Below are positions 6,188 to 59,362 of a DNA stretch of 64,000 nucleotides, piece by piece (positions within the stretch are counted from its first letter, which is position 1; each line of letters begins with the position of its first letter). A program made the translations under genes and the position numbers. The DNA is from a virus, in the IMG/VR virus record IMGVR_UViG_3300029310_000003; one strand, written 5' to 3'. The notes beneath the pieces are model-generated. The model was not told the DNA's origin. It worked only from the letters and a program-made list of their open reading frames with translations, and searched no databases.

Positions 6188-6238
6188 CCGAGCTGTGTGA
6201 AAAACCAAGAAAACCAAAACCATCGGGAGGTCATTTCC

Positions 6239-36105: not shown

Positions 36106-36126
36106 TGTTTCCCTTTCCTTCTGCCA

Positions 36127-36209
36127 AAACAAAAAGAGCCGCTGCATATGGAAAATCCATACGCATCAGCTCTATCCAGCCCTTTTGCGGCACTATCCTG
36201 CCGCAAGCA
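36127..36209 (-). promoter_or_regulatory. conserved intergenic RNA element copy A (GGAUAG-loop hairpin + GGCUGGAUAG + intrinsic terminator)
   Basis: Minus sense: ttgcggca-GGATAG-tgccgcaa, aagggctGGATAG, then a long imperfect stem agagc...gctct followed by TTTTTGTTTT. Homologous to 50393-50470. Confidence 0.6.
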
Positions 36210-36214
36210 AATTA

Positions 36215-36910
36215 TCAGATTGTGCCGCTGTCCGGCGCATCCTCGTGCGAATCGCACCATTCCAAGCTCAGATGCGGCATTCTCAGCACATGCACGCCGT
36301 AGTCAAAGCCGCCCTTGCTTCCGTTGTCCGGATGCGCGTAGCGGTTGAAATCGAAAACGCCAACACCCGTCATGTTCACACCATGCAGTGCCTCAATGAT
36401 GCACTGCTCGATGTCGTAGCTTCTCGCGTAAGCGTCCGTCCTCGTTGTGTTTTCCATATTGACGTTTACGAGAATTTCGAACTGCAATCCCAAAACCGTG
36501 TGAAGGCTGTCCTTCGCAATGGTCCTCCCGAGATACAGCTTCAAAAGGACGCCCGCTTCTGTGTCGCTCTGACCCCATACTCTTTGGGGGAAAACGCGGT
36601 ATCCCTTCGGATGTCTTGCTTTCTCCTCCGCCGTGTTGAGAACGGGATGCTCTCCGTCAAAGAGCATCGAGAGCTTTTCCTCCGCCGTCGGCAGCGGATT
36701 TTCCAGAGGCCTTGCGCCGTCGTACCAGAGATATTTCGCCAGCCGTACCCTTGCACGCTCGTTGTCGTCCTTCGGGAGGTATCCCGGCAGCGGCAGATCG
36801 AGCAGATACCGAAGCACCTTCATTGGGATCTCTTCGGTCCCGCGCAGCCGGTTGTATCCCGGAAAAACGCGGCTGTAAGGATACGTCGGGGAATCGACCG
36901 ATACCGTCAT
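36215..36910 (-). CDS. hypothetical structural-module protein (231 aa)
   Basis: ORF track entry; 4-nt overlap with the upstream gene. Confidence 0.6.
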   Translation of the reverse strand: MTVSVDSPTYPYSRVFPGYNRLRGTEEIPMKVLRYLLDLPLPGYLPKDDNERARVRLAKYLWYDGARPLENPLPTAEEKLSMLFDGEHPVLNTAEEKARHPKGYRVFPQRVWGQSDTEAGVLLKLYLGRTIAKDSLHTVLGLQFEILVNVNMENTTRTDAYARSYDIEQCIIEALHGVNMTGVGVFDFNRYAHPDNGSKGGFDYGVHVLRMPHLSLEWCDSHEDAPDSGTI

Positions 36911-37530
36911 TTTTTCAGCACCGCCTTCTCGCGTTCTTTCTTATAGGCTTCCATTTCCTTCTGCACGTTTTCCAGCTCCTTCTGCAATCCCTGCATGACC
37001 TCCGGCGTCGTCTGGAGCTGCATTGCCATGAGAATGCGGCTGACCGGCTCGTTCATGACCATGAGCTTTCCGGAAATTTCCGCGTTCAGCATTTTTTCGG
37101 TCGTCCGCCAATCCGCCAGAATGTCGAATGCGCGGTCGCGCACCTCACCGTATTCGGATTTCAGCCGCTCGAGCTGGTTAAAAATGTGGCTTCCGGCATA
37201 AAGGTCATACGCCTCCTGCGTCATGAGCCACGGGCAGACCTCTCGCTTTATGGGCTTTCCGTCCGCATCCTCGGAGGCTTCCGTTTCCGTCTCAAACTCC
37301 ATCCCGAGATACATTTTCACAAATCCGCCCATGAGCATCCGGAGCTTAAACTCCGTGTTTTCCTTGTACATCGGCGGCATCGGCAAACTGTCCGGTCCGC
37401 CCGAAAGCTTCAGATTCAGCCGGTCGAAGCAGAAATTCGCCGCCTCCTGCGCATAGTGCGTCTTGAGCGCCACCGGCACATAATCTTTCGCCTTCAAAAG
37501 CTGTTCCGCCGTGATTGTGATTTTTTCCAT
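36907..37530 (-). CDS. hypothetical structural-module protein (207 aa)
   Basis: Internal ATG (MEKITITAEQ) after a GAGAGGAG RBS. Confidence 0.6.
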   Translation of the reverse strand: MEKITITAEQLLKAKDYVPVALKTHYAQEAANFCFDRLNLKLSGGPDSLPMPPMYKENTEFKLRMLMGGFVKMYLGMEFETETEASEDADGKPIKREVCPWLMTQEAYDLYAGSHIFNQLERLKSEYGEVRDRAFDILADWRTTEKMLNAEISGKLMVMNEPVSRILMAMQLQTTPEVMQGLQKELENVQKEMEAYKKEREKAVLKK

Positions 37531-37734
37531 GCTTTTCAAACTCCTCTCAGATCTTCCATGGTTTTCTCCGCACCGCACAGTCCGCCGAAGCGCACCGGCG
37601 CGCCCATGCGGTGCTTTCCCTACGATTTTTCTCTGTGGGCATTTTTCAGGATCTCGCATTCACACGCGCCGTCCGAAACCTCCCACATCTTTGTCCTCTT
37701 GCACAGGTACTGATGTGCGCACCAGTCCCGCCGA

Positions 37735-37908
37735 TTATCCTTTCCGCTCAGAAGATCGCAGTGCAGGCTTGCATCCGCATTCTTCCGGAACGCATGCTGG
37801 CATTTTCCCATACGCCATCAACCTTTCTTCCGCCTCAATCTCGCACTCCGGACAGACCATCCTGCCCTCCGGCACGGCCCGTCCACAGCATATGCAAGTA
37901 TCCATCAT
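37735..37908 (-). CDS. small zinc-ribbon protein (57 aa)
   Basis: ATG 6 nt after GAGGAG. 'CICCGRAVPEGRMVCPECE' is a CxxC...CxxC motif. Confidence 0.4.
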   Translation of the reverse strand: MMDTCICCGRAVPEGRMVCPECEIEAEERLMAYGKMPACVPEECGCKPALRSSERKG

Positions 37909-37918
37909 TCCGGACTCC

Positions 37919-39643
37919 TCACGCATTCGCGCTTCCATACACGCTATCGTTTGCATCGGTAACGCGCACGGTCTCAATCTGGCGCAGGCCGCAGACAGAA
38001 ATGATCTGTCGAATTTTATCGATCATGGATTCCGCCACGCATTTGTGCGCATTCCCGGTGATATGCACATCGTCAATAAAGAACTTGCTGCGTAAATCTG
38101 TATCGTCGTAATTGAGGAACCACTTGTCGAACAGATCCAGAACCCAGCATCGCGTATGCATCTGGCAGAGGATCTTCAACGCGATCAGATAATCTACCAT
38201 CTTGACCGTGCTGGTTTTCCAGTTCTGATTTTTGAACGGCAGCAGCCACATAATCTGCGCGTGTGGGAACGTATCCTCCAGCAGCGTCAGCGTCTTTTCG
38301 ACCGCACCGTAGAAGTTCGTATCCTCTGTCAGATCGGTCGCAACGCCCAGCGCCGCCTGATCCCAGTGATCGTTCGTTCCAAGCTCGACGACCACAATAT
38401 CGACCGCATTCGCCCACATTTTGAGAGACAGATTCGTTTTGTACTCCGCAAGCTTTTGCGCCAGCCCGGAATAGCCCGACATCGCCGCGTCGTATGCTGT
38501 ATCGGTATTCTTCTTCCCATTCCAATCGTAGCTTCCGCTGCCTGTCGTGGCCGACACACCGCTTTGACACAGCGCCATAGTCTCTGCCCGCAGATTCATG
38601 GGCACATATTTGCGGAATGCATTCTGCAATCCAGCGTTGGATGCTGCATAAGTGATGGAGTCGCCTATGAACTGGATGCTCAGCGTGCGGTCGCGCGGAA
38701 CGTCTCTGGACATGGCCGCATACGCGCGTTCATTTTCTGCGGTTGCCGTTTTGGATGCGAAAATCTGCTGCAAATATCCTCTATCTCTTGCGTAGCCGTT
38801 TCCAAGATCCTTTTTGTAAACGCCCCAGCTCTCCCCATTTGTCTCCCCGATATCACTCATTCCCGCCAGAACTTCTGCCACGAAGTAATTGTTGATGCGC
38901 TTGCCGGCATCCGGCTTAACGCTTGCCCGGAGTAGATACCAGTCCTGTTTTACCGTGAAATAATCGGGAACACCGGCCAGCGTTTGACCAGTGATTGCAG
39001 GCTCAATGTAGCCGTCACTGACTGCTTTCTGCATGATCGTGTTAATGATACCCAACGAGAATTGGCCATAGAGTCTGTCCCTTCCTGCCGCAAGATTCGC
39101 GGCCACATCCGGAAGCGCCGAATAAGATCGATACCAACCAAAATTGCTGACATCAGGATCTGTCACAAATTCATTCGTATTTACCGGATACGGAATTCCC
39201 AGTAGGCAGTATGTTTTCCCGACCTCGAACTTTACCGCGTAAACTGCGCAGTCGGCGTCCTCCTGTGTGTTTGCGGCAATCGTTTTGTATCCGTCCAAAA
39301 ACAGCTCCCACGGAATGTCTCTGCGTTCCATGCTGTAGCCCGCCAGTTTCTGTGCGGAAATACTGCCATCCTGTACGGTCGTGGTTGCCTCCGGATGCTC
39401 CGTCAGCCATGTGTCTACTGCCGAGGAGACCTGCGCGTCCGTCGGGCCGGATTCCGGCATTTCCACCGCCTCCCACGCTGTCGGCTTTCCGACCGCATCA
39501 ACCGCCTTGATTTTTGGGATTTTCCCAGCCACCGCGCCGGTAATGCCGAGCGATTCATCCGACCCGCCGCCTCCGCTCGCTGGAATCTCATAGGTATCCG
39601 GAAGCCCCGGAAATTTGATCGATTTGAGGTCTTTTGTCGCCAT
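37919..39643 (-). CDS. tail fibre/spike protein with SGNH (GDSL-like) esterase domain
   Basis: 'FIGDSITYA' (block I), 'VVVELGTNDHW' (block III) and 'FFIDDVHIT' (block V DxxH). The N-terminal Gly-rich attachment region is shared in style with fibre proteins. Confidence 0.8.
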   Translation of the reverse strand: MATKDLKSIKFPGLPDTYEIPASGGGGSDESLGITGAVAGKIPKIKAVDAVGKPTAWEAVEMPESGPTDAQVSSAVDTWLTEHPEATTTVQDGSISAQKLAGYSMERRDIPWELFLDGYKTIAANTQEDADCAVYAVKFEVGKTYCLLGIPYPVNTNEFVTDPDVSNFGWYRSYSALPDVAANLAAGRDRLYGQFSLGIINTIMQKAVSDGYIEPAITGQTLAGVPDYFTVKQDWYLLRASVKPDAGKRINNYFVAEVLAGMSDIGETNGESWGVYKKDLGNGYARDRGYLQQIFASKTATAENERAYAAMSRDVPRDRTLSIQFIGDSITYAASNAGLQNAFRKYVPMNLRAETMALCQSGVSATTGSGSYDWNGKKNTDTAYDAAMSGYSGLAQKLAEYKTNLSLKMWANAVDIVVVELGTNDHWDQAALGVATDLTEDTNFYGAVEKTLTLLEDTFPHAQIMWLLPFKNQNWKTSTVKMVDYLIALKILCQMHTRCWVLDLFDKWFLNYDDTDLRSKFFIDDVHITGNAHKCVAESMIDKIRQIISVCGLRQIETVRVTDANDSVYGSANA

Positions 39644-39658
39644 CTTCGTTCTCCTTCC

Positions 39659-41392
39659 TTATGCTGTTTCCGTGGGGGTGCCGATCTTCTTCCCATCCAC
39701 AAACACGTTCCCATTATCGTCCACCGTAAGCTTGTGCAGTCCGTTCGGAGATGCAAGCAGCAGATGCGGAGCCACCGTATACGGTGCAAGCACATATTTC
39801 TGGTAGTCTTTCGTTTGTGCTGGAACAGTCTTGTACGTGAGCGTCAAATTGGTCAGCGCTCTTGTGGTCGTCAGCGTATAAGCATCCGTGCATGCATTGT
39901 ATGCAAGATTCACCTGCCAATAATTTCCGCCACCGGAAAAATTGACAGTTTCCGCCCCGCCCCACACTATCGTAACAGGCGTAGCCGGCGTGTAATCGTC
40001 AAATCCCAGCGTGATTTCTGCGCCGATCGGAATATCAAGCCCAGATGCCACAAACGGCGTATCGGGTGATACATTGCCGCACGCAACCGTTTTTTCGTCG
40101 CCATCGGTCAGTTCCCCAAGAAATTGTATGGACGTTCTATCTGGGTGACTATGGTCGCTTCTCGCCACACGGTCACTGTCTCCCTGTTTGCCAGTCAAAG
40201 TAGACGGCATTGGTTTGTCATAGGAGAATTCAATAGAGCCATCGATTTTCTCCCATATATGTCCACTCTTCCATCGGAAACGTGCAAGGCTCATAAGGGT
40301 ACTGCCACTTAGGGAAATATCGTTCACCTCATAGAAGCTCACAGACATATCATCCACATATTTCCCATATCCGTCCACCAGTCCGACGTTGTTCGATTCG
40401 CCAAATGCAGAGGCCACTGCCGCAACGAGCTTTCCGTTGTCTATCGCGGCCTTGATATCTGCATATTCGGCATAAGTTCCGTCAAGTTTTTTGGAAAAAT
40501 ACGTTTGGGTCTTTTGATCGAATTCAAACTTGATCCAGTAAACATCCTTTACGTTCTCAAGCTCAAGGAATTTTTCCGGGATTTTAACAACCTGTCGAAT
40601 TGCAGCCTCGAACACTGCGCTCTGCCCCGTGTAAGTTCCGGCTGTCTGCGCGACCCATTGGGACTCCTGATAGTAGCAAAGCACATAATTCGTAGCTGTG
40701 CCGCCTACAATGTCCTCAACAGGAACAGTCGCAAAGTATATAAGGCCCTTATAATAGCCAACCGTACAGTCGATGCTTTCCGTCCCAACCTTGACCGTGA
40801 CAACATCCCCGAGCGTCGGCACATAGTCCATTTGAATGTTTGCTGATTCCGGAAGTATCCCATTGTATATCTCGGTTGCGACTGGATCAGACATATACGC
40901 GCCCGGACGATTCTTCACGAAATCCGCCGCCTGCGCATCGTTCTGGCTCCAGTCCGCCTGAACGCTTCCGCCGCTCATCTGAACGCCGGCCGCGCCAACG
41001 ACCACGGAAACATTTCCCGCGTCGTTTCCGACCTCAATGATGCTCCGCGAAAGCAGCTTTCCATCCGTGATCTTCGCCCCGCCCAGAATTCCGCGATTGA
41101 CGGCCGGCAGTACGGAAACCGGCGCGCCGTTTCCGCCGAAAACGCTTCCGTCCTGAAAAAGCACCCGCGCCTGTATCGGCAGCATTCCCTTCATTCCGAA
41201 GGTCTGCGCCTGACTGAGCGGAAACAGCCATTTCCCGTCCGCGTAGGTGATATCGTCGGGATACTGCCTTGAGAGATTTCCAATGCTGAGAACGAGCGCC
41301 GTCACCATCTCCGGCGTAATCAGCGTCCCGTCGAGCGTGCGCAGTGTGAACGGCTTCTGATAGCTGTCTCCCTGCATGATCGAAATTCCCAT
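39659..41392 (-). CDS. tail fibre protein
   Basis: 'QADWSQNDAQAADFVKNRP' is a motif common in phage fibre proteins. 577 aa, beta-rich. Confidence 0.65.
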   Translation of the reverse strand: MGISIMQGDSYQKPFTLRTLDGTLITPEMVTALVLSIGNLSRQYPDDITYADGKWLFPLSQAQTFGMKGMLPIQARVLFQDGSVFGGNGAPVSVLPAVNRGILGGAKITDGKLLSRSIIEVGNDAGNVSVVVGAAGVQMSGGSVQADWSQNDAQAADFVKNRPGAYMSDPVATEIYNGILPESANIQMDYVPTLGDVVTVKVGTESIDCTVGYYKGLIYFATVPVEDIVGGTATNYVLCYYQESQWVAQTAGTYTGQSAVFEAAIRQVVKIPEKFLELENVKDVYWIKFEFDQKTQTYFSKKLDGTYAEYADIKAAIDNGKLVAAVASAFGESNNVGLVDGYGKYVDDMSVSFYEVNDISLSGSTLMSLARFRWKSGHIWEKIDGSIEFSYDKPMPSTLTGKQGDSDRVARSDHSHPDRTSIQFLGELTDGDEKTVACGNVSPDTPFVASGLDIPIGAEITLGFDDYTPATPVTIVWGGAETVNFSGGGNYWQVNLAYNACTDAYTLTTTRALTNLTLTYKTVPAQTKDYQKYVLAPYTVAPHLLLASPNGLHKLTVDDNGNVFVDGKKIGTPTETA

Positions 41393-41394
41393 CC

Positions 41395-42714
41395 TCAGAT
41401 TCCCTCCAATCCGATCCTCGCCTCCGCGAAAATTTCACCGTTTGCCGCCGTGATCTTAAGTGCCTGTGCGCTGGCATGCCAGCAGGTAACGGAAATTTTG
41501 TTTCCGTCGATTTTCGCCGTATAGGCCGATTCCTCCGCGCCGGAGCATGTGAACGTGATTGCTTCGTCCGTCTCTGCCCCATTTTCAAATACCGCCGCTT
41601 CCAGCGTCAGCGTCTCATACGCCCGGAGCAAATCCGGAACGTTCCCAAGGAACGCAATTTCCTTTTCTCCGTCCGCCGGAACGACCGTGATCTCCATTGT
41701 CTGAAAAACCTCTCTGTTCTGTACCAGTCTGCACCGCAGCATGCAGTTTCCATCCTTAACGGCAGATACAACCCCGTCCGGGCTGACCTCTGCCACACTT
41801 TCATCCGAGCTTTCCCATTCGTAGAAGATCGGATGCTCCATGGAGTTTTCGACCGTCTCCCCCATCCGGAGGCTTTCCGCCGCAAAACTCTGCGTCCGAC
41901 CCGTCTTGATAACGGGGTTTCCCTTGATACGAATTTCCCACGAAAACGTCTTTCCGCCGGCAACGTGCCGCTTCATGTCGTCGATCTCCGGATTTACAGG
42001 CTCATACCGCGCCGTAAATTCCATCAGCCGTACCGAATCATAGTCTCCTGTGAATTCCTGCGACCAGTCACCGAAGCCCGTGATCCGATACGCGCCGGAG
42101 CCGAGAATGATCCGGCTGTTCGTGTTGAGCTGCCGCGTTTCCGCGTTGCACTGGCACACGATGTTCACATAGCCCTTCGTAATCAGCGCATATTCCTGCA
42201 TATCGCTTTCGTTCGCGGTCAGAATGGCTTTTTCCGCGCAGATTGGCTCCGAAAGCAGATTTCCGTACCAATCCAGATGATTCCAGACCGTCCGGCATCT
42301 CTGGATAATTCCTCCGCCAATGTCGTTTGAAATGTTCGTGGGATTCACAACGAGCCATGTGCTTCCCATCGTCTCGATCTTCGACCCCTCCGGCACATAT
42401 TCAATGCGTTGGTCCGCAAAAAGCACGATTTTGTAATCGTCCTGCTTTCGGAGCGTCGAAGCGGAATCCGGCGCAATGTCCGCTATGCGAATCCGCGTTT
42501 CCGTCCAGCACTCGCGGTCGTTCGGATCAAGTCCCTGCACACGCGCTTTCACGAAATTGGACGCATACTTGGAAATTTTCTCCGTAAACCGCGCAGAAGG
42601 ATTTGAAAGGTACTGCTTCTCCCGGTTTCTGTACTGCGCCGGTGTGTTTTTCACGGAGCCGGAAATTCTGCCGCCCGCACAAAGCCCGCTTGCAATGTTT
42701 TTTTCAATGGACAC
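41395..42714 (-). CDS. structural protein with C-terminal Ig-like (Big_2-type) domains
   Basis: GTG start chosen to avoid overlapping the upstream gene. 'WESSDESVAEVSPDGVVSAVKDGNCMLRC' is Big_2-like. Confidence 0.6.
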   Translation of the reverse strand: MSIEKNIASGLCAGGRISGSVKNTPAQYRNREKQYLSNPSARFTEKISKYASNFVKARVQGLDPNDRECWTETRIRIADIAPDSASTLRKQDDYKIVLFADQRIEYVPEGSKIETMGSTWLVVNPTNISNDIGGGIIQRCRTVWNHLDWYGNLLSEPICAEKAILTANESDMQEYALITKGYVNIVCQCNAETRQLNTNSRIILGSGAYRITGFGDWSQEFTGDYDSVRLMEFTARYEPVNPEIDDMKRHVAGGKTFSWEIRIKGNPVIKTGRTQSFAAESLRMGETVENSMEHPIFYEWESSDESVAEVSPDGVVSAVKDGNCMLRCRLVQNREVFQTMEITVVPADGEKEIAFLGNVPDLLRAYETLTLEAAVFENGAETDEAITFTCSGAEESAYTAKIDGNKISVTCWHASAQALKITAANGEIFAEARIGLEGI

Positions 42715-42734
42715 TCTCCCGGCCCCCTTTTCTG

Positions 42735-43511
42735 TTAAGTTCCGTAAATGCAGACGTTGTAGTCCGCATACGGGAAAGCATTCGGTACGGCTACCTGCAC
42801 CCGTATATTTCCGCTCACAAGCGAAACGCCGACGGCCGTCGGAAGAAGCGCGGAAATTCCACTGCCCGTGGTTTTGACCATCGCTCCGTTTGTTGCGTTC
42901 GCATCCTTGAAATATGCCGCCGAATAGATCTGCTTGTCCGACAGCAGCGCATAGCTGATCGACGCGCATACATACACGGCGAGAATGTCCGAGATTCCGG
43001 CCGTGTTGGAAATGTCCAGATAATTCTTCGCATCTCCGGCTACCGTCGCTGTGATTTTCTTGACCGTCTGTCCGCTCGGAGGATTGATAAGCACCTGACT
43101 CAGGCCCGTGTAGCCGCTGTCCGGCGTCACCGTCTGCTGCACCGTTCCGGCCGTGACCGTCTTGCTCTGCAATTTGACGCCGCCGACAACGACCTGAGAA
43201 AGCCCGTTATAGCCCGCGTCCGGCTTGACGGTCTGCTGGCTTGCGGACGGGATCACGACCTTTCCCTGAAGCTTGATCGCGCCAACCGTCACCTTGCTCA
43301 GTCCCGTAAAGCCGCTGTCCGGCGTAAAGATCTGCTGGCTCGTGGACGGCGTAACGGATTTTTCCTGAAGCTTCACCTGCGCCACGGAAACCTGATCGAG
43401 TCCCGTATAGCCAGCGTCCGGCTTCACCACGACCGGCGCGGTCGTGGACGCGCTCACGCTCTTGCTCTGCATTTTCACAACGCCGCCTCTGCGGCTGAAT
43501 TCGCAAGCCAT
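42735..43511 (-). CDS. fibre-like protein with 4 tandem 33-aa repeats
   Basis: GGGAGGA RBS. Repeats 'KLQ.K.V.PS.SQQ.V.PD.GY.GLSQV.V' at aa 13-145. Confidence 0.65.
   Translation of the reverse strand: MACEFSRRGGVVKMQSKSVSASTTAPVVVKPDAGYTGLDQVSVAQVKLQEKSVTPSTSQQIFTPDSGFTGLSKVTVGAIKLQGKVVIPSASQQTVKPDAGYNGLSQVVVGGVKLQSKTVTAGTVQQTVTPDSGYTGLSQVLINPPSGQTVKKITATVAGDAKNYLDISNTAGISDILAVYVCASISYALLSDKQIYSAAYFKDANATNGAMVKTTGSGISALLPTAVGVSLVSGNIRVQVAVPNAFPYADYNVCIYGT
43077..43475 (-). repeat. 4 x ~99-bp in-frame tandem repeats
   Basis: Derived from the 33-34-aa periodicity in CDS 42735..43511. Confidence 0.75.
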
Positions 43512-43531
43512 ATTCTGTCCTCCCTGAAAAT

Positions 43532-44245
43532 TCAGAGCATCGTGAATACCCGCCGCAGCGGATTGACTCTCTGCATATATGCGCAGCTCTGCTCATATGC
43601 CCGCAGCTCCGAATAAAAGAGCTGTAAATTTTCCTTGAACCGAGCCGTGGATTCCTTCATCGTCGTGTTTTCGTTCGGTGGATTGAAATTCTTGTCGTGG
43701 ATTTTCGGCTGGATGTTCAGCCATTCGCGGTTGAACCGGTTGTCCCACACGACCGATACCGCCAACCCCAGAAGCCGTTTCTGCCGCATCGTCAGCTCAT
43801 GTGAAAACCGACCGTCCGTGTAAAAATCCAGCCTGTATTCGGTCCCGGCGTTGTCCTGCCTTGGGAACGTCACGTTTCCCGTCTCCTTGTCGTATGTAAA
43901 ATCCGTATACGGGAAAAATACCGCCTCGTCCATCCCGGCGCTTCCAACCATCACGCAGGAGCACAGCTCGTACCCGATCTTTCCGGTCGCAACGACCGTT
44001 TCCTGCGTCGTGCTGGTCTGGTCGCTGACCCATTCCGCGTCATCGTACTGTGCTTTTTCAAGGCCCTCCGCCAGATAAAGCGCAAGCTCCGGCGGCTGCG
44101 TAAGCATTGGGATAGCCATTTCCATCCATGCGCTCATACGCCGGAAAAAAAGCGCCGCATCCTGTTGAAGATCCTCCGTCATCCGTTCGTCCGAGATCAG
44201 GACCATTGCGTGCTTTGTAATGATCTCGCTCCAGCTCGTACCCAT
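43532..44245 (-). CDS. hypothetical structural-module protein (237 aa)
   Basis: ATG (MGTSWSE) overlapping the upstream stop by 1 nt (TGATG); the track lists a TTG three codons earlier. Confidence 0.55.
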   Translation of the reverse strand: MGTSWSEIITKHAMVLISDERMTEDLQQDAALFFRRMSAWMEMAIPMLTQPPELALYLAEGLEKAQYDDAEWVSDQTSTTQETVVATGKIGYELCSCVMVGSAGMDEAVFFPYTDFTYDKETGNVTFPRQDNAGTEYRLDFYTDGRFSHELTMRQKRLLGLAVSVVWDNRFNREWLNIQPKIHDKNFNPPNENTTMKESTARFKENLQLFYSELRAYEQSCAYMQRVNPLRRVFTML

Positions 44246-44394
44246 CAGTCCCAATCCTCCTTTTCGTAGGAATCCACGTTCCGGATCTTCTGCATATCCT
44301 CCCGGATACAGTCTGCGGCGGTCTCATCCTCGATCAGAGCCAGAAGAGATTCAATGATGCCGCAAAGCGCCTCGATTTTTTCCTGGCTGTCCAT
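44245..44394 (-). CDS. hypothetical acidic small protein (49 aa)
   Basis: ORF MDSQEKIEALCGIIESLL...EDWD fills the gap between two genes; below the track cut-off. Confidence 0.4.
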   Translation of the reverse strand: MDSQEKIEALCGIIESLLALIEDETAADCIREDMQKIRNVDSYEKEDWD

Positions 44395-44416
44395 GAAACC
44401 GCCGCCTTTCCTCTAT

Positions 44417-45469
44417 TTAAGCCGTGACCGTAACGGTGCATTCCGCCGTTCCGGCCAGATGATTTTTATCTTCTTCCTGCTGGATCTCCAAAACGCACTC
44501 CCCAGCTGCGATTGCCGTTACTGTGATCTTATTGCTTTCGGCTCCAACCGAAAGTTCTACCACGTCCGGCGTCCGCGCTTCGATGTCGATCTTTCCGTCG
44601 GAATTCGTGCTGATCGTGATCGTGTCGCTTCCGCTGACGGACATTTCGATGGCTTCCGGCGATACGCTGAGACCGGCCGCCGCTTTCGCAATGGTCCACG
44701 GCGCAATGATCGTCCCCGCATAATTTCCGATTCCGTCGATGCGCAGAGAATAATTTCCTGCGTCTGTTCCCTTGTCACCGCTGACCGTGTAATCCGTGTT
44801 TTCCGTCAGTTTGACGTCGCCGAGCGTCACGCTCGTCACGGCCTTTTCCTGCTCGTTTCCGGTGTAGGTCAGCGCCGCGCCCAATACGACCGCCGCGCTT
44901 TCAATGCTTGTCCGCACCGTGAGCGCATTTTCAAGGTTATAGAAAAAACCGGTCGTCACGCCGTTTGCCGTCAGAAAATATCCGCCGATGCAAAGCTCAT
45001 ATTTGCCGCCGGCCGCCGCCGGGACCTCAAAGCCACCGCGCGTCAGCTTCGCGCCGGAGACCGACGTGATCTGCGCCACGGCGTGGGTCTTGTTTTGCAT
45101 CGCCCAGCGAATATGCACGTTCGTCAGCGTTGCCGCCGCGCTGAAAACCACATATTCCACGGGTCCCCGATACCGCACGGCATAGCCGGAGCCGCCATTA
45201 CTGAGCGTGATATTTCCGCTTCCATCGTCGGTCGCGCTCATACCGGCAGACTTTGCCGTGAGCTGTGTCTCCCGGTTGAGCTTCGCGGTAAATTCCGCCG
45301 CCGACTGCATCTCGATCTCCAGAATTTCCGCCTCGGAGCCGCGCCAGTCGAGCGCCGGGAAGGCGTTTTTGATAGCCTCCCGCAGCTCCGGCAGGATGTT
45401 GATGTTGGCCGCGTATGCGGACGCAGGCACAAAGGAAAATTCGCTGTATACAGGACTGCTCATATTCAA
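44417..45469 (-). CDS. Ig-like repeat surface protein (head or neck decoration?)
   Basis: 'TYTGNEQEKAVTSVTLGDVKLTENTDYTVSGDKGTDAGNYSLRIDGIGNYAGTI' (MBG/Ig-like) and a C-terminal Big_2-like '...ITVTAIAAGECVLEI'. Confidence 0.6.
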   Translation of the reverse strand: MNMSSPVYSEFSFVPASAYAANINILPELREAIKNAFPALDWRGSEAEILEIEMQSAAEFTAKLNRETQLTAKSAGMSATDDGSGNITLSNGGSGYAVRYRGPVEYVVFSAAATLTNVHIRWAMQNKTHAVAQITSVSGAKLTRGGFEVPAAAGGKYELCIGGYFLTANGVTTGFFYNLENALTVRTSIESAAVVLGAALTYTGNEQEKAVTSVTLGDVKLTENTDYTVSGDKGTDAGNYSLRIDGIGNYAGTIIAPWTIAKAAAGLSVSPEAIEMSVSGSDTITISTNSDGKIDIEARTPDVVELSVGAESNKITVTAIAAGECVLEIQQEEDKNHLAGTAECTVTVTA

Positions 45470-45503
45470 TACCTCATTCCCGCGCCCACATGCGGCGCTT
45501 TTC

Positions 45504-46412
45504 TCAGAGCGCTTCGCGCTCGTTCATTCTCTCGATGATATGGACAAAATCGCCTCTCGGCTTTTCTGCCGTCTTGCTCATTTCGTTGAGCTGCACGACG
45601 ATCTCCCGCGTCACATGCGTATCACCGTTTTCATACGCCTCCATATATCCCTGTGCGACCATTTTCTTGTGGCCGTCGCAGAGCCTTGGATAGATCTCCA
45701 GCATTTCTTCGCCGAATTCCACGATTCTTGTAAAGACCTTACGGTCGAGGATCTCCCCCTCCCGGTAATTGACGCCCAGCGCCTCGCGTTCGTCCTCATT
45801 GAGTCCGGACACCACGATCAGCCAGCGCCTTGCCATGAATACGCGGTTGACCTCCGTCAGCACGCGCGAAAGATCGCGCTTCGGCACATAGAAGCTTCCC
45901 GTCTTTCCGACGATCTGTCCGTAAATACCGCCCTCTCCAAAGAAAACGATGTTGTCGTCCGCGACCGGAGCCATCCACAGGAAATGCACCATTTCCGTGT
46001 CATTGGAAACCTGAATCACCTGCGGAGTCTGCTGTGCGGGAACGCTTGCCATCGCGCGCGCGACCGCATCCGCGATCATCTTCTGCACATCCGACTTCTT
46101 GAACGTCTCTTCCTTCGGGGCTTCTGCCTTTTCCTCCACAACGGATTCCCTAGGAACTTCCACTTCCTGTCCCTTCAGCTCCGGTTCCAGCTCCGTCAGC
46201 GGTGTCTGTTCACCGTCGTAGCCGGCACCCTTGACATCGTCCGCCATCACCGTCAGCACATTTTCTTCCCCGATCTGCGCCTTTTCAGCGGTGTTTTCCG
46301 TCGCGATTTCTTCCGGGACGTTGAAGAAAACGTCCTTTTCTTCCGAAGCTTCCGCTTCCGGATTTTTTCTCGGTCTGCCGGGCTTTCTGCCCGCGTTCTT
46401 GTTCTCAGCCAT
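45504..46412 (-). CDS. hypothetical protein (302 aa) with acidic disordered N-terminus
   Basis: ATG 8 nt after AAAGGAG; directly downstream of the capsid gene. Confidence 0.6.
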   Translation of the reverse strand: MAENKNAGRKPGRPRKNPEAEASEEKDVFFNVPEEIATENTAEKAQIGEENVLTVMADDVKGAGYDGEQTPLTELEPELKGQEVEVPRESVVEEKAEAPKEETFKKSDVQKMIADAVARAMASVPAQQTPQVIQVSNDTEMVHFLWMAPVADDNIVFFGEGGIYGQIVGKTGSFYVPKRDLSRVLTEVNRVFMARRWLIVVSGLNEDEREALGVNYREGEILDRKVFTRIVEFGEEMLEIYPRLCDGHKKMVAQGYMEAYENGDTHVTREIVVQLNEMSKTAEKPRGDFVHIIERMNEREAL

Positions 46413-46575
46413 TTTCAAAAACTCCTTTCAGATCTATGGCGTTTTTCGTGTCGGCCCCCGCCGGAATTGAACCGGCGTCTGTGCGCCAGCGGAGCCATAT
46501 GGCGCTGGGAGGGAGGAGGTTTACCCTCCCAGCGTTTGACGCACGCGGGCCTGCCCGTGACCCGCGCGGCCTTGC

Positions 46576-47805
46576 TTAGACAGTAACGTGTCCGACCTTG
46601 TTCGAGAAAACGGCGACCATATCCAGCGCAATGGTCAGATTGATGCCGATCTCGAAATCTGCCGTGCGCGTCGGGTCCATCTCAATGGTGATGGGCGTCT
46701 CGGCGTTGTAAGCGATGGTCATGGGCTTTCTGCCGGAGGAAGAGAGCATCCATACATCGTTTGCAGACAGGAGCGTGGTCGGTGCGCTGTTGATGTTGAC
46801 GGGGCTTACCGCGTCACGCAGCGGCATCAGGCGAACGCCAAGGAATTCGCCGAGCATACCGTTGCTGTTGTACTGCTGACCCAGCAGCATCGCCAGCGCG
46901 GAATCCATGCTTGCGTTGGTGGAGCCGGTGGCCTGCGTCGGCAGGACCTTTGCCAGCGCAACGGGAGAACCGGCCGCGATGATGTTTCGAACGCCGGTGT
47001 TGTTGAGCGCGGCCAGCTTGTTTGCCAGCGAGATCCAGTTCTGGTTGGTGAACGTCTGGTTGAGGTTGCTCGGAATGAGCGTGGTGTCGGCTGCCGCAAG
47101 GGTCATCGCCTGATTCCACATGCCCATGGTCTTTGCATACATGCCCGCAACGAGATTCGCAAAGAACTGACCGAAGTCCTGATTGTTGCCGACCAGCTGA
47201 TACCACTTGGCCGTAATCATTGCGGTCTTGGGCTGCGGGTTGAGCGTGTAGTCCTTCGTGTAGAAGCGGTTGCGCGGCACGCTTCTGGAGGCGCCCCAGC
47301 TGGAATCCTGGAAAATGGGGATGTCATTGGAGCCGACAGAGATCATAGCCGTCTCGCCAAAGCCGACCTCCAGCGTGTCCGCGAAGAAATCCACGGCCTC
47401 GGAGTAGACGTTGGCAATGATGGGAATGACGATCTCCTGATAGATGCCCTGAAGCACTCTGTAGAACGCAGCGTTTCCGTAGAAGCGCATACCGTTGCGC
47501 TTGAGTTCCTCAAAGCTTGCCGGAGGCGTTTCGCCGGTCTGTGCGCAGGCGACCTTCGCGGCATACATCAGGTGTTCTCTCTGGAACTTTTCATTCAGCT
47601 CCTTGTAGCCCTTGCCACTCAGCATGTGCTGAATGTTGGCAGTCTGCATACCGTTTGCCGCCAGAATGGCGGATTTGCCGTTTGCGGCGTGCTCATAGAA
47701 AAGCACACGGCCCTTGGAAACGATGTCACCGCGTTCTGCTTCATTGCCGGAAGCATTCACGCGGAAAACAGCGGTAGGGATGCTGTTCAGATTGATTTTC
47801 GGCAT
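46576..47805 (-). CDS. putative major capsid protein
   Basis: 409 aa. Positioned after the scaffold-like and decoration-like genes. Followed by a 157-nt hairpin-dense spacer, typical of highly expressed capsid genes. No family was searched. Confidence 0.65.
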   Translation of the reverse strand: MPKINLNSIPTAVFRVNASGNEAERGDIVSKGRVLFYEHAANGKSAILAANGMQTANIQHMLSGKGYKELNEKFQREHLMYAAKVACAQTGETPPASFEELKRNGMRFYGNAAFYRVLQGIYQEIVIPIIANVYSEAVDFFADTLEVGFGETAMISVGSNDIPIFQDSSWGASRSVPRNRFYTKDYTLNPQPKTAMITAKWYQLVGNNQDFGQFFANLVAGMYAKTMGMWNQAMTLAAADTTLIPSNLNQTFTNQNWISLANKLAALNNTGVRNIIAAGSPVALAKVLPTQATGSTNASMDSALAMLLGQQYNSNGMLGEFLGVRLMPLRDAVSPVNINSAPTTLLSANDVWMLSSSGRKPMTIAYNAETPITIEMDPTRTADFEIGINLTIALDMVAVFSNKVGHVTV

Positions 47806-47822
47806 TTTCTCTCACTCCTTCC

Positions 47823-48407
47823 TTATGCGTAGACGCGGCAAGCCTGCACGTCGATGTAGTCAAAGCTCTCCGTCGTACCCTCGGTGAATTTTCCGGTCTG
47901 CGGAAGCACCTTGAAGTACAGTGCGCCGTTCGCTGTCGGAGCGGCAGCGGCGGGCTTGAGCTGACCGGCGTCGATGGTCAGGAACGTGTTGGCTCCAACG
48001 GCGGCATTCACATTGCCGATACCGAAGCGGTATGCGTGATCGCCGTCGAAAACGATCTTCGTGAACGTGCCGTCGCGGCCTGCCGGAATGCCGAGGCCGA
48101 GCGTCTCCGTGCCGACGGCATAGCGCTGGCCGTTTTTGCCCGCAAGCAGCGAGACTTCGTAGGTATTCGCGGCATAAACGACATCGCCTGCCTTCGTGGC
48201 GGAAGTGGCGTCCACCATGATCCATGCGTTTTCATTCTTGATGTTCGGGAAGCCTGCGCACGGCAGCTGCGTGGTGCGCACGACCAGACGGCCCGCGTCG
48301 CAGTCCGCGTCCGCGCTGGACGCCTGATATCTGCCGGTCACATTGATGAGGTCATCGCGGAAATCGTTCGTCACGCGCGGCTCAAATGCGGTTTTTGCAG
48401 TAAACAT
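47823..48407 (-). CDS. putative head decoration/accessory protein (positional)
   Basis: 194 aa, beta-rich, lying between the scaffold-like gene and the capsid gene. Confidence 0.4.
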   Translation of the reverse strand: MFTAKTAFEPRVTNDFRDDLINVTGRYQASSADADCDAGRLVVRTTQLPCAGFPNIKNENAWIMVDATSATKAGDVVYAANTYEVSLLAGKNGQRYAVGTETLGLGIPAGRDGTFTKIVFDGDHAYRFGIGNVNAAVGANTFLTIDAGQLKPAAAAPTANGALYFKVLPQTGKFTEGTTESFDYIDVQACRVYA

Positions 48408-48424
48408 TCTTTTTCACTCCTCTC

Positions 48425-49840
48425 TTATTCCTCGGAAGCGGCTTCGACGCCCCACTTGTCCAGCAGGCCGGCAATGGAGCCGTCGTCCTTTTCGCTGTTC
48501 TTTCCGAGCTTGTCCCATACATAGGTGGTTTTCTTCTTCGCGGCGGCTTCGGCATCCATCTTCTCGACGGCCTCTCCGCATACGGCATAAACGGCCTTTG
48601 CGACCTCTGCCTCGCCGGTCCAGTTCTTGTCTTTGTCGCAGCTGTTGGTGTAAAGTCCCGCCTCAATGTCGGTCAGAATGCCGGAAATTTCGCTGTCCGC
48701 GACCTTCTGCTCCCGGTTGAGGTTAAACCTCCGCAGCGTTTCTTCCGCCTTCGCCTTCGCGGCGTTCAGACGGCGCTTGCTTTCAAACTCCTGCATTGCC
48801 GCGACCTGCGCGTTCGCGCTGTTCAGCTGCTGAGTCAGCGCTTCCACGTTTTTCTCCGCCGCGTTCAGTTTTGTGTTCGTTTCTCCGCAGATCACATCCA
48901 CAAAATCCGCCGCGTCCGTGGTCAGCTGTTCTTCGCCAAACTGCGCGACTGCATTGATGGAAAGCGTCTGGAAGCGTTCCGGCACGATGGTCTCGGCGGC
49001 GTTTTCCAGAATGTAGGACTTATACGCGCCGTCCTTCGTCATCAGGCAGACATAGATCTTTCCGTCCTTTTCACCTGCCGCCAGAACCTTATAACCGTCG
49101 AAGCGCGCGGAAAGCTCCTTGAGCTGTCTCTTGCTGTAAGGTTTCAATGTTTTCACTCCTTCGTGTTGTAAATTCCCGTTTTCGGGTCCGTTTTCTCCGT
49201 CCGGGGCCTTCTGTAAAGATGCCGCCTTGAGCTTCAATGTCTTAAACTCTTCTCCCAGCGCGGCAAGCCGAGCGATGTTGGCCCCCGGAATTGCCGGAGC
49301 AACGCCCGCACCCAGAATCGTGACGCCAAGTCCCCGCCAGACCTCCTCAATCTCAATGTCTCCGTCCATGCGGTTTTCCTCGATCAGAGTTTCCACGGAT
49401 ACGTCCATGCGCCCTGTTCGCACGATCTCATCCACGGCCTCCTTTGCGTAGAAAGCGAAAAGCTTTCCCCTTGCCACAATCCAGGTCTGACCATCCCTCT
49501 TCTTGAGGGAAAAATCACGTTCATCATCCGACAGCGTTCCGACAATGCGTTCCGCCGTCCCATCCATGTAGGAATAGTATTTTTCGCCCGTTCTCGGGTC
49601 CGTCCGGAGCTGGCTGTTGTGTCCGTCTCCGACCTTTCCCAGAACGTAGGCGATCAAAATCGGCTGCCCTACAAACGTCTTGTAGAACTTTTCCAGATTC
49701 CGATAATCCCATTTGTTCCGATTCACGCCCTCGCGCATCAGCCACAGCTCCACGCCGAATTCGTAGGGATTCAGCCTTTGCAGTACGCGAAGCTGTCCCG
49801 TCGCAAGCGCGTTGGTGTTTTTTGTCAGCGGCATTTTCAC
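48425..49840 (-). CDS. putative prohead protease/scaffolding fusion protein
   Basis: The C-terminal half is an Ala/Glu/Lys coiled coil ('NAAEKNVEALTQQLNSANAQVAAMQEFESKRRLNAAKAKAEE'). The N-terminal ~200 aa are globular. Position is after the portal gene. Confidence 0.5.
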   Translation of the reverse strand: MKMPLTKNTNALATGQLRVLQRLNPYEFGVELWLMREGVNRNKWDYRNLEKFYKTFVGQPILIAYVLGKVGDGHNSQLRTDPRTGEKYYSYMDGTAERIVGTLSDDERDFSLKKRDGQTWIVARGKLFAFYAKEAVDEIVRTGRMDVSVETLIEENRMDGDIEIEEVWRGLGVTILGAGVAPAIPGANIARLAALGEEFKTLKLKAASLQKAPDGENGPENGNLQHEGVKTLKPYSKRQLKELSARFDGYKVLAAGEKDGKIYVCLMTKDGAYKSYILENAAETIVPERFQTLSINAVAQFGEEQLTTDAADFVDVICGETNTKLNAAEKNVEALTQQLNSANAQVAAMQEFESKRRLNAAKAKAEETLRRFNLNREQKVADSEISGILTDIEAGLYTNSCDKDKNWTGEAEVAKAVYAVCGEAVEKMDAEAAAKKKTTYVWDKLGKNSEKDDGSIAGLLDKWGVEAASEE

Positions 49841-50370
49841 TCACCGTCCTGTCTGTAAAGTCCCTCGATCCATCCTTCGAAGCTGGTCGCGCTCATTTCG
49901 TGCTCGGAATACATCTGCCACGCATACAGGAGCTTTTCGTAGCTCTGACTGTTCTCCATCTGCAAATTTTCAAACCCGCGTCCGAGCGGATACATCCCGT
50001 TTCCGTCGCAAACCTCCACGCATTTCCGGAGCGCATCTTCGATCCTTTGCAGCATTTCAATGGCCGCTTCAAAGACCTCGTCGAGGTTTTCCGGCCGGTC
50101 CGCGTATTCTGCGGTCGCCGGGTAGATCTGTAAGATGTGCCTCTGGTGGAGCAGATCACCCACCCCGTCAAAGCGCTGCGGCTGCAAATGCGCCAGCCTG
50201 TGCAGAACGTCCGCCGTTTTCGGCATCCCCAGCTCGATCAAGACCAGCTCCTTGAGTGTGTCCAGCCCTCTTGCCGCATCCTGATAGGCGCCTGTCACAT
50301 CCCGCGCTGCATCGCGCACGGCCGCAAGTGCGCCGTTTTCAAAATCAAACCGTTCTTTCAGCCGAGCCAT
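49837..50370 (-). CDS. hypothetical helical protein (177 aa)
   Basis: Internal ATG (MARLKERF) after a GGGAGAAGAG RBS. Confidence 0.55.
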   Translation of the reverse strand: MARLKERFDFENGALAAVRDAARDVTGAYQDAARGLDTLKELVLIELGMPKTADVLHRLAHLQPQRFDGVGDLLHQRHILQIYPATAEYADRPENLDEVFEAAIEMLQRIEDALRKCVEVCDGNGMYPLGRGFENLQMENSQSYEKLLYAWQMYSEHEMSATSFEGWIEGLYRQDGE

Positions 50371-50392
50371 GTTCTCTTCTCCCTTCCGCAAA

Positions 50393-50470
50393 AAACAAAA
50401 AGAGCCAACGGCACGTTTCCGTGTCGTTGACTCTATCCAGCCCCTTTGCGGTACTATCCTACCGCAAGCA
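50393..50470 (-). promoter_or_regulatory. conserved intergenic RNA element copy B (GGAUAG-loop hairpin + GGCUGGAUAG + intrinsic terminator)
   Basis: Minus sense: ttgcggta-GGATAG-taccgcaa (a C-G to U-A compensatory change relative to copy A), aggggctGGATAG, stem agagtcaacgacacg-GAAA-cgtgccgttggctct, then TTTTTGTTTTTT. Confidence 0.6.
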
Positions 50471-50483
50471 CTCTATTTTCTTT

Positions 50484-50636
50484 TCAGCTCCGCGCGATTT
50501 CCTTCTTCTCGATTACCCTCGCGCTGATCTCCACCACGCGGATCAGATCTTTCGTCCGCTGAATTTCAACGTTTTTCCAGTCGTTCAGCGCCTTGTTAAT
50601 CGCCGGAAGATCTTTTTCCGTCAGAAATTCAATCAT
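50484..50636 (-). CDS. hypothetical small protein (50 aa)
   Basis: GGAGG RBS. MIEFLTEKDLPAINKALNDWKNVEIQRTKDLIRVVEISARVIEKKEIARS. Overlaps the portal stop by 8 nt. Confidence 0.4.
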   Translation of the reverse strand: MIEFLTEKDLPAINKALNDWKNVEIQRTKDLIRVVEISARVIEKKEIARS

Positions 50637-52380: not shown

Positions 52381-52732
52381 TTTCCGCATCCTCCGCCGTT
52401 CCGGCCTGCTTTCTGCGTTCTTCTGCCAGCGCGCTTGACAGCTCGTCGATCATCCGGCTCAGATTCTCCATTGTTTTCGGCTTTTCCTTTTCCAGCCGTT
52501 CCCGCAGAAGCGCCGTCGCGCAGCTCATGATCCAGTCTTCGTCTGCCTTCGTCAGCCGCTTCACGTTTTCTCCGTCGATCTCCATGCCGCCCTCTGGCCG
52601 AGCACCCGCCGTATAGATCAGGATGTATCCCGGCGCGATCCTGCTGAACCGTTCGCGCATCGCCGTTTCCACAGCCTCCTGTGTCACGCGCAGCGCATAT
52701 AGCCGGTATACCTTCGTCTGATCTTCTGTCAT
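52361..52732 (-). CDS. hypothetical protein (123 aa)
   Basis: ORF track entry, between TerL and the portal gene. Confidence 0.5.
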   Translation of the reverse strand: MTEDQTKVYRLYALRVTQEAVETAMRERFSRIAPGYILIYTAGARPEGGMEIDGENVKRLTKADEDWIMSCATALLRERLEKEKPKTMENLSRMIDELSSALAEERRKQAGTAEDAENGDRDK

Positions 52733-59177: not shown

Positions 59178-59362
59178 ACCGCCGCCCCCTTCTGCGCGGC
59201 CTCTACCTGCATTTTCAGCCGGTCAGCCCTTTGCAGATGCTTTTCCGCCCGCGCAATGATCCGTGAGACCGTAGACCGATTCACGTTGTATTTCAGCGCG
59301 ATCTGTCCCATCGTTTTCCCGGACATATAAAGCGTGTAATACAGCTCCTGTTTTTCCGTCAT
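59174..59362 (-). CDS. small sigma-70 region-4-like HTH protein (62 aa)
   Basis: 'LYMSGKTMGQIALKYNVNRSTVSRIIARAEKHL'. Confidence 0.55.
   Translation of the reverse strand: MTEKQELYYTLYMSGKTMGQIALKYNVNRSTVSRIIARAEKHLQRADRLKMQVEAAQKGAAV

Follow-up and report, generated by a model that had tools for sequence, protein, structure and literature searches.

What do two closely similar RNA elements of about 80 nt, lodged deep inside the late operon of a gut phage, do for the genes that follow them? The question arises from a 64,000-nucleotide stretch of viral DNA (IMG/VR record IMGVR_UViG_3300029310_000003, hereafter the window), for which an initial annotation had listed a twice-repeated intergenic RNA element. 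Both copies could be confirmed, copy A at 36126-36206 and copy B at 50390-50467, on the minus strand and within a long block of co-directional phage genes. Each copy carries two hexaloop hairpins followed by a predicted intrinsic terminator, and the second hairpin shares its bases with the foot of that terminator. With somewhat better than even probability, this arrangement makes each element a factor-dependent antiterminator which gates an intrinsic terminator in the late operon, and a 50-aa protein encoded directly upstream of copy B is the leading candidate for the factor. Coordinates are window positions and sequences are given in transcript sense (minus strand) throughout. Details of the individual features are presented in Table 1.

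The order of the parts is the same in both copies: a hairpin P1 (8 bp, GGAUAG loop), a 3-nt linker, a hairpin P2 (4 bp, again with a GGAUAG loop), the terminator, a U-tract and the ribosome binding site (RBS) of the next gene. The 8-bp hairpin with its GGAUAG loop had been recognized in the initial annotation, together with the compensatory replacement of a C-G pair in copy A by a U-A pair in copy B, and both readings hold in the sequence. The stretch that follows had been taken for a conserved single strand. It is in fact P2, a second, covarying hairpin with a 4-bp stem in both copies, and mechanistically the most important trait of the element is that this hairpin competes with the foot of the terminator. 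The terminator stems had been described as completely different; this is true of their tops, which are unrelated between A and B, but not of their base, since the basal AGAG...CUCU is common to both, as is the U-tract. The U5GU4 (copy A) and U5GU6 (copy B) runs follow the terminators as had been noted, with the RBS of the next gene right after them.

The 3′ strand of P2 and the last two bases of its loop form the bottom of the terminator stem (5′ base AGAGCU in copy A and AGAGUC in copy B), so that P2 and the terminator are mutually exclusive in both copies. When P2 is forced in a folding calculation, the leftover upper hairpin of the terminator sits 5-7 nt away from the U-run. P1 is stable on its own account (-12.8 kcal/mol in copy A and -10.8 kcal/mol in copy B). 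P2 alone is worth only -3.2 kcal/mol in A and -2.2 kcal/mol in B, against -24.5 and -20.9 kcal/mol for the respective terminators, and therefore it cannot win unaided. Both copies show the G+C-rich stem-loop directly abutting a U-run by which intrinsic terminators are recognized. Intrinsic termination requires the stem to abut the U-tract, and since the terminator also far outweighs P2, the default state of each element is predicted to be "stop".

The two copies stand out clearly from the rest of the window. The 22-nt pattern of P1 occurs exactly twice in the 64 kb, against 0.00 occurrences expected from 100 shuffles, and exact matches to GGGCUGGAUAGAG in the window are confined to the same two sites. 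The hexamer GGATAG is found 13 times in the window, and a stem of at least 4 bp surrounds only the four that belong to A and B. The elements, taken at a length of ~100 nt, fold far better than their shuffles (z = -5.5 and -5.0). A covariance model built from relatives recovers copy A with 48.7 bits (36168-36206) and copy B with 42.3 bits (50429-50467), and as the next-best match in the window reaches 13.9 bits the number of copies is exactly two. The same model finds no third copy in the ~20 kb by which the 84-kb phage genome exceeds the window.

A single compensatory pair between two copies is thin evidence for a conserved structure; the real support comes from relatives. We examined 160 loci from viral contigs, anchored on the portal gene and on the gene for a 231-aa protein. 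The site B plan, comprising the 8-bp P1 with hexaloop, the 3-nt linker, the 4-bp P2 whose loop measures 5-6 nt, and a terminator that overlaps P2 and leads into a U-run and an RBS, is kept in clades at 98, 87, 86, 83, 80, 79, 77 and 57% portal identity, and a 42%-identity contig labelled Christensenellaceae still carries UUUUCCGA-AAGUGG-UCGGAAAA GAA AGCC-AAAUGG-GGCU and a terminator at this site. Site A is kept in the 65-99% clades, while the 55% clades have their second copy ~1.2 kb further on. Every relative with a terminator at the syntenic place shows the two-hairpin unit, and the covariance model recovered clades outside its seed (the 57% clade and L288).

Alignment of all elements with MAFFT shifted the 57% clade by one column, and a clean subset and a model-fitted alignment were therefore used for the analysis of covariation. 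In the clean alignment of 26 distinct sequences 98.0% of the cells pair and 11 of the 12 pairs have changed on both sides, against a pairing of 30-48% in controls with slid partners. The 42 distinct model-aligned sequences give a similar picture, with 98.3% pairing and both-side changes again in 11 of 12 pairs. P2 itself covaries in three of its four pairs and is found in the forms GGCU/AGCC, AGCC/GGCU, AACC/GGUU, GACU/AGUC and CGCC/GGCG; in L203 the change from AGCC/GGCU to AACC/GGUU leaves the 3′ strand of the terminator with a G-U wobble. Throughout a wide phage family, then, both syntenic sites retain the structure while the sequence drifts, which agrees with the view that this is a structured functional RNA and not a chance repeat. 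The further copies and the covariation in relatives that the initial annotation had looked to a covariance model for are both present.

Elements could also be found without the help of an anchor gene. A first loose DNA pattern gave mostly chance matches in viral contigs, only those in near-identical phages being real. Scans of viral and metagenome contigs with the RNA pattern alone yielded about 12 further distinct lineages, including one (L324) with the canonical AAUUGG/AAUUGG loops of gut-2, an Rfam motif discussed below. Among 101 pattern matches in metagenomes P1 pairing is bimodal, with at least 7 of 8 pairs formed in 39 and 0-6 in the remainder, and on this ground the group of 39 was taken as real. 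In most of the pattern-found lineages the P2/terminator overlap is present and is followed by an RBS and a start codon. As a separate observation, one member of the 87% clade (L126, ~5990-6500) has inserted DNA directly after the shortened U-run of the site B terminator. The insert holds an open reading frame (ORF) starting VERSYRFRISPNIKQLTQIQRTFGCCRFIYNHYL, TnpB/IS605-type in appearance, and would come to lie between the terminator and the RBS that follows.

Across the distinct loop types the loops follow the purine-rich consensus R-A-R-N-R-G. The final G6 is near-invariant (28 of 29 P1 loops and 24 of 24 P2 loops), and position 4 is U in 17/29 P1 and 15/24 P2 loops and G in 5/29 and 7/24, respectively. 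Within an element P1 and P2 carry similar loops as a rule, and so do the two sites of one genome: the 87% clade has AAAGAG with GAAGAG at both sites and the window phage has GGAUAG four times. Exceptions occur, as in the 86% clade, where site B has GAGCAG and site A has AAUUGG. Similar, purine-rich loops with a near-invariant G6 are expected if the loops share a protein partner. Kissing or pseudoknot formation between the loops was ruled out, the loops being identical rather than complementary, and so was a CsrA target (suggested by GGA in the loops), as relatives with AAAGAG or AAUUGG have no GGA.

The position of the two sites in the operon suggests what they might control. Reading from the late promoter, genes for 314-aa, 581-aa and 123-aa proteins are followed by the portal gene, the 50-aa ORF and element B; after B come the 178-aa and 471-aa genes, further structural genes, the 231-aa gene and element A, and after A the 279-aa and 377-aa genes and the tape measure gene. 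At both sites the RBS begins 1-5 nt past the U-tract, a gap which leaves no room for a promoter, and the genes 3′ of A and B therefore depend on read-through. Strong minus-strand terminators in the 32-kb late operon are A, B and a promoter-proximal leader terminator.

From these observations we infer termination at both sites, binding of a factor, read-through upon binding and the identity of the small protein with that factor. By default, P1 and the terminator would form and RNA polymerase would stop before the next block of genes: at site B the head genes, at site A those for tail, tape measure and lysis. A trans-acting RNA-binding factor would recognize the purine-rich hexaloop of P1 (R-A-R-N-R-G, here GGAUAG) and then capture the identical loop of the weak 4-bp P2 as this hairpin emerges. 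With P2 held closed, the bottom six pairs of the terminator would be lost and the upper hairpin would be left 5-7 nt from the U-tract, so that termination would fail and the promoterless downstream genes would be transcribed. The 50-aa protein, made from the first late segment, would open B and then A, acting as a feed-forward timer or a safety gate.

The candidacy of the 50-aa protein rests on its company. Its ORF, preceded by a GGAGG RBS, lies directly upstream of B and is conserved wherever a relative possesses site B. Among the 12 independent lineages found by the RNA pattern alone, the ORF just upstream of the element carries the same ~45-aa domain in 10, and the contigs of the other two are too short for this comparison. 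The domain reads roughly ..(D/E)(L/V)I..(I/V)..(I/A)L..G(N/K)(D/T)(V/A)EIK..K.G..(I/V).... A hidden Markov model (HMM) of the family, run against 40,796 open frames, picks out four of the upstream ORFs at 2.6e-19, 1e-14, 1.2e-5 and 2.3e-5; the next five best matches (E 0.01-0.4) are also upstream ORFs, and one more has an E-value of 4.4. In the L315 lineage the neighbouring genes are, by sequence reading, HNH-like and terminase-small-like and not the portal. At 88 portal-anchored loci the domain and the element occur together in 71, neither in 14, the domain alone in 3 (with variant RNAs) and the element alone in none. The distance from the stop codon to P1 varies from about -125 to +40 nt among the lineages, which argues against a mechanism based on ribosome position and for action in trans.

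The family of the small protein comprises 170 clusters, all hypothetical and with no Pfam domain. An AlphaFold model from a 28-sequence alignment (mean predicted local distance difference test score, pLDDT, 85) shows a helix (residues 7-18) and a beta-hairpin (22-27 and 32-37). A TRAP (MtrB)-like protein, suggested by similarity seen by eye, was dropped after a profile search of PDB sequences gave weak unrelated matches and no TRAP. In four lineages from metagenome contigs (L310, L322, L375 and L394) the ~45-aa domain forms the C-terminal part of a 211-233-aa protein bearing ..SICESFxxGxD(I/V)EL(K/R)KQK..V DII... The two-hairpin RNA has no nearby U-run in L310, L322 and L375, while L394 has one, which suggests that the first three use a different expression platform.

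More tentatively, and on balance doubtfully, the gut-2-type RNA and the ~45-aa protein may together form a self-contained and previously unrecognized phage antitermination module. In it, a small protein without relation to ANTAR, N, Q or CAT-PRD proteins would read R-A-R-N-R-G hexaloops and hold the antiterminator closed, successive blocks of the late operon would be gated in this way, and the window phage with GGAUAG in all four loops would be a specificity variant.

Several points weigh against a switch of this kind or against the part given to the small protein. The 71/14 table alone is no proof of a functional link, because adjacent features are co-inherited. One contig (L169/L267, IMGVR_UViG_3300030040_000082) keeps a site-A-like element without the small ORF and site B in the portion covered, which consists of two short stretches making up ~16 kb of the 64-kb contig. 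The small protein has no recognizable RNA-binding family or fold: Pfam and PDB sequence profile searches gave nothing meaningful, Foldseek comparison of its model with the PDB returned no match at E < 0.7, and the window version of the protein is not notably basic. It is also odd that the major capsid genes, whose products are required in the largest quantity, should lie 3′ of a terminator. The terminator is not universal, since four pattern-found lineages have the two hairpins and no nearby U-run. Finally, the sequences used for covariation were chosen (by a parser) or aligned (by the model) by procedures that reward pairing.

The same anatomy may be read in other ways. A and B could be unregulated, partly leaky terminators which set transcript ratios or insulate lysis and structural genes, with P1 as a stabilizing or processing hairpin and P2 without a role. 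Strong terminators with good U-tracts and a P2 that alone is thermodynamically negligible would suit such sites, and phages often have terminators within operons as well as protective hairpins. However, this leaves unexplained the covariation between the 5′ and 3′ strands of P2 (3/4 pairs), the fixed 3-nt linker and the like loops of P1 and P2 with their invariant G6, and the two-hairpin unit is found joined to a variety of terminators or, in four lineages, to no terminator at all. We consider leaky terminators unlikely, and to the same degree we doubt a small RNA (sRNA) acting in trans, which would have a promoter of its own or be the released 3′ end of the mRNA from upstream, and would serve, for example, as a sponge or partner of the small protein. 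In that case the terminator would only mark the 3′ end of the sRNA. The 3′ end of a small RNA was among the roles offered in the initial annotation, and hairpins with a terminator are the usual shape of an sRNA, in line with the Rfam type of gut-2 ("Gene; sRNA"). Upstream of A there is a weak promoter-like TTGACT-16-GAGAAT (36306-36279) as well as a GATAAT seen by eye 4 nt before P1, and terminated transcripts would accumulate with such a 3′ end anyway. Against this, an inspection made partly by eye found no convincing promoter upstream of B, the RBS of an essential downstream gene with no other promoter stands right after the U-tract, and the conserved P2/terminator overlap would be needless for an sRNA. 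Among the other roles named in the initial annotation, recognition by an antiterminator or RNA-binding protein agrees best with the anatomy, whereas nothing specific speaks for a processing site.

If the factor came from the host, the elements would be true ANTAR targets, whose hexaloops are bound by a host ANTAR regulator of the EutV, NasR or AmiR type, tying the late genes to a host signal. The architecture is indeed the same, with two hexaloop hairpins, the second over the terminator, and several sites per operon (PMC3369931); some relatives have loops that fit A1/G4 (AAAGAG, AAAGGG), and the phage-encoded alternative is still only a candidate. All window loops are, however, GGAUAG with G1 and U4, and G4, the base contacted by EutV (PMC8934654), is in the minority in the family. 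The linker keeps to 3 nt, a length that impaired eutP induction (PMC3369931), P1 has 8 bp, and a host factor would not explain the tight link to a phage small ORF; we regard this reading as improbable, somewhat more so than the two above. Translation-coupled attenuation, in which the ribosome finishing the small ORF would decide between P1, P2 and terminator in the manner of a leader peptide, is very improbable. In the window 16 nt separate the end of the ORF from P1, and in some lineages (L315, L317 and L329) its reading frame enters or crosses the hairpins, but the stop-to-P1 distance varies between the limits given above (~-125 to +40 nt), site A has no such ORF upstream, and the peptide itself is conserved as a folded domain (pLDDT 85). 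Hardly to be expected at all is a metabolite-sensing tandem-hairpin riboswitch in the style of guanidine-II (mini-ykkC): two similar small hairpins with like loops do stand ahead of an expression platform, yet the loops differ by clade (GGAUAG, AAAGAG, AAUUGG, AAGCGG and GAGCAG), unlike a ligand pocket, and the controlled genes are virion genes.

Table 1. Positions of the RNA elements and of neighbouring features in the window.
Feature	Position	Strand	Sequence or description
Copy A, P1	36185-36206	minus	UUGCGGCA-GGAUAG-UGCCGCAA; 8-bp stem
Copy A, linker	36182-36184	minus	AAG
Copy A, P2 (proposed antiterminator)	36168-36181	minus	GGCU-GGAUAG-AGCU; 4-bp stem
Copy A, predicted intrinsic terminator	36135-36173	minus	bulged 17-pair stem-loop
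Copy A, U-tract	36126-36135	minus	U5GU4; first U doubles as final stem base
Copy A, RBS	36111-36121	minus	GAAGGAAAGGG; 4-nt gap after U-tract; ATG at 36105-36103
279-aa ORF opening the tail segment, incl. RBS	35266-36121	minus	downstream of A; ATG 36105
Tape measure protein	28639-33546		
Copy B, P1	50446-50467	minus	UUGCGGUA-GGAUAG-UACCGCAA; 8-bp stem
Copy B, linker	50443-50445	minus	AGG
Copy B, P2 (proposed antiterminator)	50429-50442	minus	GGCU-GGAUAG-AGUC; 4-bp stem
Copy B, predicted intrinsic terminator	50401-50434	minus	stem-loop
Copy B, U-tract	50390-50401	minus	U5GU6
Copy B, RBS		minus	GGAAGGGAG; between U-tract and ATG at 50370-50368
178-aa ORF opening the head segment, incl. RBS	49837-50387	minus	downstream of B; ATG 50370; then 471-aa protein (phrog_3313)
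50-aa ORF (candidate factor)	50484-50636	minus	directly upstream of B; GGAGG RBS; ends 16 nt before P1
Portal gene	50629-52389	minus	phrog_2739, 3e-32; synteny anchor
Leader terminator	55628-55585	minus	hairpin + U7; -26.3 kcal/mol; within ~25 nt downstream of late promoter
Sigma-70-like late promoter, extended -10	55686-55655	minus	TTCTTG..17..TGtGGTATAAT; ahead of late operon
119-aa ORF	55774-56133	minus	just 5′ of late promoter; phrog_2428
62-aa ORF	59174-59362	minus	5′ of late promoter

The window represents most of an 84,197-bp temperate phage which is very common in human-gut assemblies, its portal protein having more than 100 near-identical clusters. The main lysogeny module, with a serine recombinase and CI/Cro-like regulators, lies together with replication genes in the part of the genome outside the window, and a Phage_integrase domain was detected in one window ORF. 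Bin labels of metagenome-assembled genomes for the portal relatives are mostly Oscillospiraceae, Ruminococcus, Acutalibacteraceae and Christensenellaceae, and a gene with a Spo0A_C domain in the window also points to a host among the Clostridia. Downstream of A, the 279-aa ORF is followed by a 377-aa virion structural protein, a 179-aa ORF and the tape measure protein.

The late operon is headed by a sigma-70-like promoter with an extended -10 element, and the hairpin of the leader terminator is followed by the RBS and ATG (55560) of the first late gene, a layout that recalls lambda PR′-tR′. This terminator was considered as a third copy and ruled out, as it has no two-hairpin unit. The idea that the elements are bidirectional terminators was likewise set aside, since a plus-strand T-run after the P1 complement is present only at B and is not conserved. 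Two small genes lie 5′ of the late promoter. The 119-aa ORF matches the Acb2/Tad1 hairpin domain PF24729 (1.8e-5, below cutoff) and may encode an anti-CBASS or anti-Thoeris nucleotide sponge; the 62-aa ORF, with weak matches to sigma-70 region 4 and YlxM-like helix-turn-helix proteins (E ~1e-3), may encode a small late-transcription regulator.

Elsewhere in the window, an accessory region with genes at 11624-12085, 16472-17017 and 17014-18123, all on the plus strand, encodes a Spo0A C-terminal domain protein (1e-22), a PemK/MazF-type toxin (1e-21) and a class-V aminotransferase-like protein, and also holds several anti-repressor, Rha and Bro genes. Two tRNA genes are present on the plus strand of the accessory region, at 14942-15012 and 16026-16098 (71.5 and 50.8 bits). 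Between 44354 and 47832, long plus-strand ORFs of 394, 459 and 414 aa run antisense to minus-strand structural genes and are probably shadows of a G+C-rich coding strand; the sole minus-strand ORF with a PHROG match there is 46576-47805 (phrog_4088), and the strand assignment in this interval is tentative.

If the proposed antitermination is correct, it would give a concrete and testable function to the orphan RNA family gut-2, which is listed only as an sRNA. The design of two hexaloops set against a terminator would then be in use by abundant temperate gut phages of Oscillospirales-type Clostridia for the gating of head and tail genes, and the ANTAR style of control would seem to have originated, or to have branched off, with another protein as its partner. 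The 50-aa protein family, with its 170 hypothetical clusters, would be nominated as a new RNA-binding regulator and a new class of antiterminator. An RNA of ~40 nt and a 50-aa protein would also make a compact part, possibly an orthogonal transcription switch, for which the loop variants GGAUAG, AAAGAG and AAUUGG would be natural specificity alleles. Should the elements prove not to be switches, what remains is a covarying RNA structure, well conserved and fixed in its genomic positions, in a phage that is very common in the human gut.

How far do these elements resemble what is already described? The initial annotation had considered the motif undescribed, which it is not: its architecture is that of gut-2 in Rfam (RF02990) and its logic is that of the ANTAR dual-hexaloop targets (PMC3369931). 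At the gathering threshold Rfam finds two tRNAs only in the whole window, and searches with 250 nt around each copy give no gut-2 match even at E <= 10. Site B elements of relatives, in contrast, match RF02990 over its full length with 33.3 (L141), 27.5 (L288) and 24.3 bits (L150), against a gathering threshold of 39.8, with local E-values of 1e-5 to 2e-3; L232 gave no gut-2 match in the Rfam search. A graded series at the same syntenic site leads from 98-99% portal identity through the 87, 79, 77 and 57% clades to L288 (42%), and our own model links the closer clades to the 57% clade and L288, which match gut-2. The window copies are therefore divergent, sub-threshold relatives of this orphan motif.

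The consensus structure of gut-2 shares with the present elements the 8-bp P1 with hexaloop, the 3-nt purine linker, the 4-bp P2 with hexaloop and the origin in gut metagenomes. The loops differ, the family having AAUUGG (P1) and AAUuGG (P2) against GGAUAG in the window, with only A3, U4 and G6 in common, and the 48-position model stops 6 nt after P2 and thus excludes the terminator, the setting in a phage late operon and the partner ORF. Gut-2 is one of 224 candidate RNAs of Weinberg et al. 2017, NAR 45:10811 (PMC5737381), whose main text does not discuss it, and its function is given as unknown in Rfam. As far as that main text and the other sources cited here go, the role in phage late operons, the terminator overlap as an expression platform and above all the partner protein appear to be unreported. 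In relatives, a near-threshold match to another motif, RF03075 (DUF3800-VIII RNA), lies between the small ORF and the two-hairpin unit (L141, 5926-5992, and L149 and L150, 5990-6056; 38.0, 31.8 and 33.4 bits against a threshold of 40.2) and contains the conserved string GCGCGGGGUAUUGAGGUAG, so that two orphan Rfam motifs adjoin in one intergenic region. The window phage has lost the RF03075-like piece.

With the N/nut (boxA-boxB) system of lambdoid phages the elements have in common the phage setting, two copies per genome and a hairpin with a purine-rich loop. There, a small phage protein reads the loop and brings about read-through of terminators; here such a protein is a candidate put forward from sequence. 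A nut site is found shortly after an early promoter, acts processively on terminators far away and does not overlap a terminator, whereas the present elements lie deep in the late operon between structural genes, overlap their own terminators and have two hairpins with loops of 6 nt. Inspection by eye showed no boxA-like CGCUCUUA upstream of A or B. The ribonucleic antiterminator (RAT) bound by BglG, LicT and SacY is also a hairpin which is stabilized by protein and overlaps the 5′ half of a terminator, a protein step that is proposed for the present elements. RAT is, however, a single imperfect hairpin of ~29 nt with internal loops, recognized by a CAT-PRD protein; the present RNA has another shape, and no CAT-PRD protein was found among the window ORFs. 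A likeness of P2 to the PyrR-binding loop (CCAGAGAGG in L203) was set aside, as the relatives searched gave no Rfam PyrR match.

In their logic the elements parallel the ANTAR targets of EutV/eut, NasR/nasF and AmiR/amiE. These consist of two tandem hairpins of at least 3 bp with hexanucleotide loops, of which the second overlaps a terminator (PMC3369931), and the eut operon has several internal terminators, each with its dual-hexaloop element (PMC3369931, PMC8934654). The window copies likewise have two tandem hexaloop hairpins, the second made from the 5′ base of the terminator and too weak without protein, at several sites in one operon. The differences lie in the details of recognition. 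EutV makes its base-specific contact with loop G4 (PMC8934654), while the A1/G4 signature fails in the window, where all four loops have G1 and U4, and position 4 in the family is mostly U. The eut linkers measure 5-12 nt and shortening that of eutP to 3 nt impaired induction (PMC3369931), while 3 nt is the length in the window and in nearly all relatives. P1 is here a stem of 8 bp and not a mini-hairpin, no ANTAR domain (PF03861) occurs among the window ORFs or in the precomputed Pfam matches of the other ~20 kb of the phage genome, and the element is tied to an unrelated ~45-aa protein. By analogy, the element would work in the way of an ANTAR target, of which it shares the design, probably without being one.

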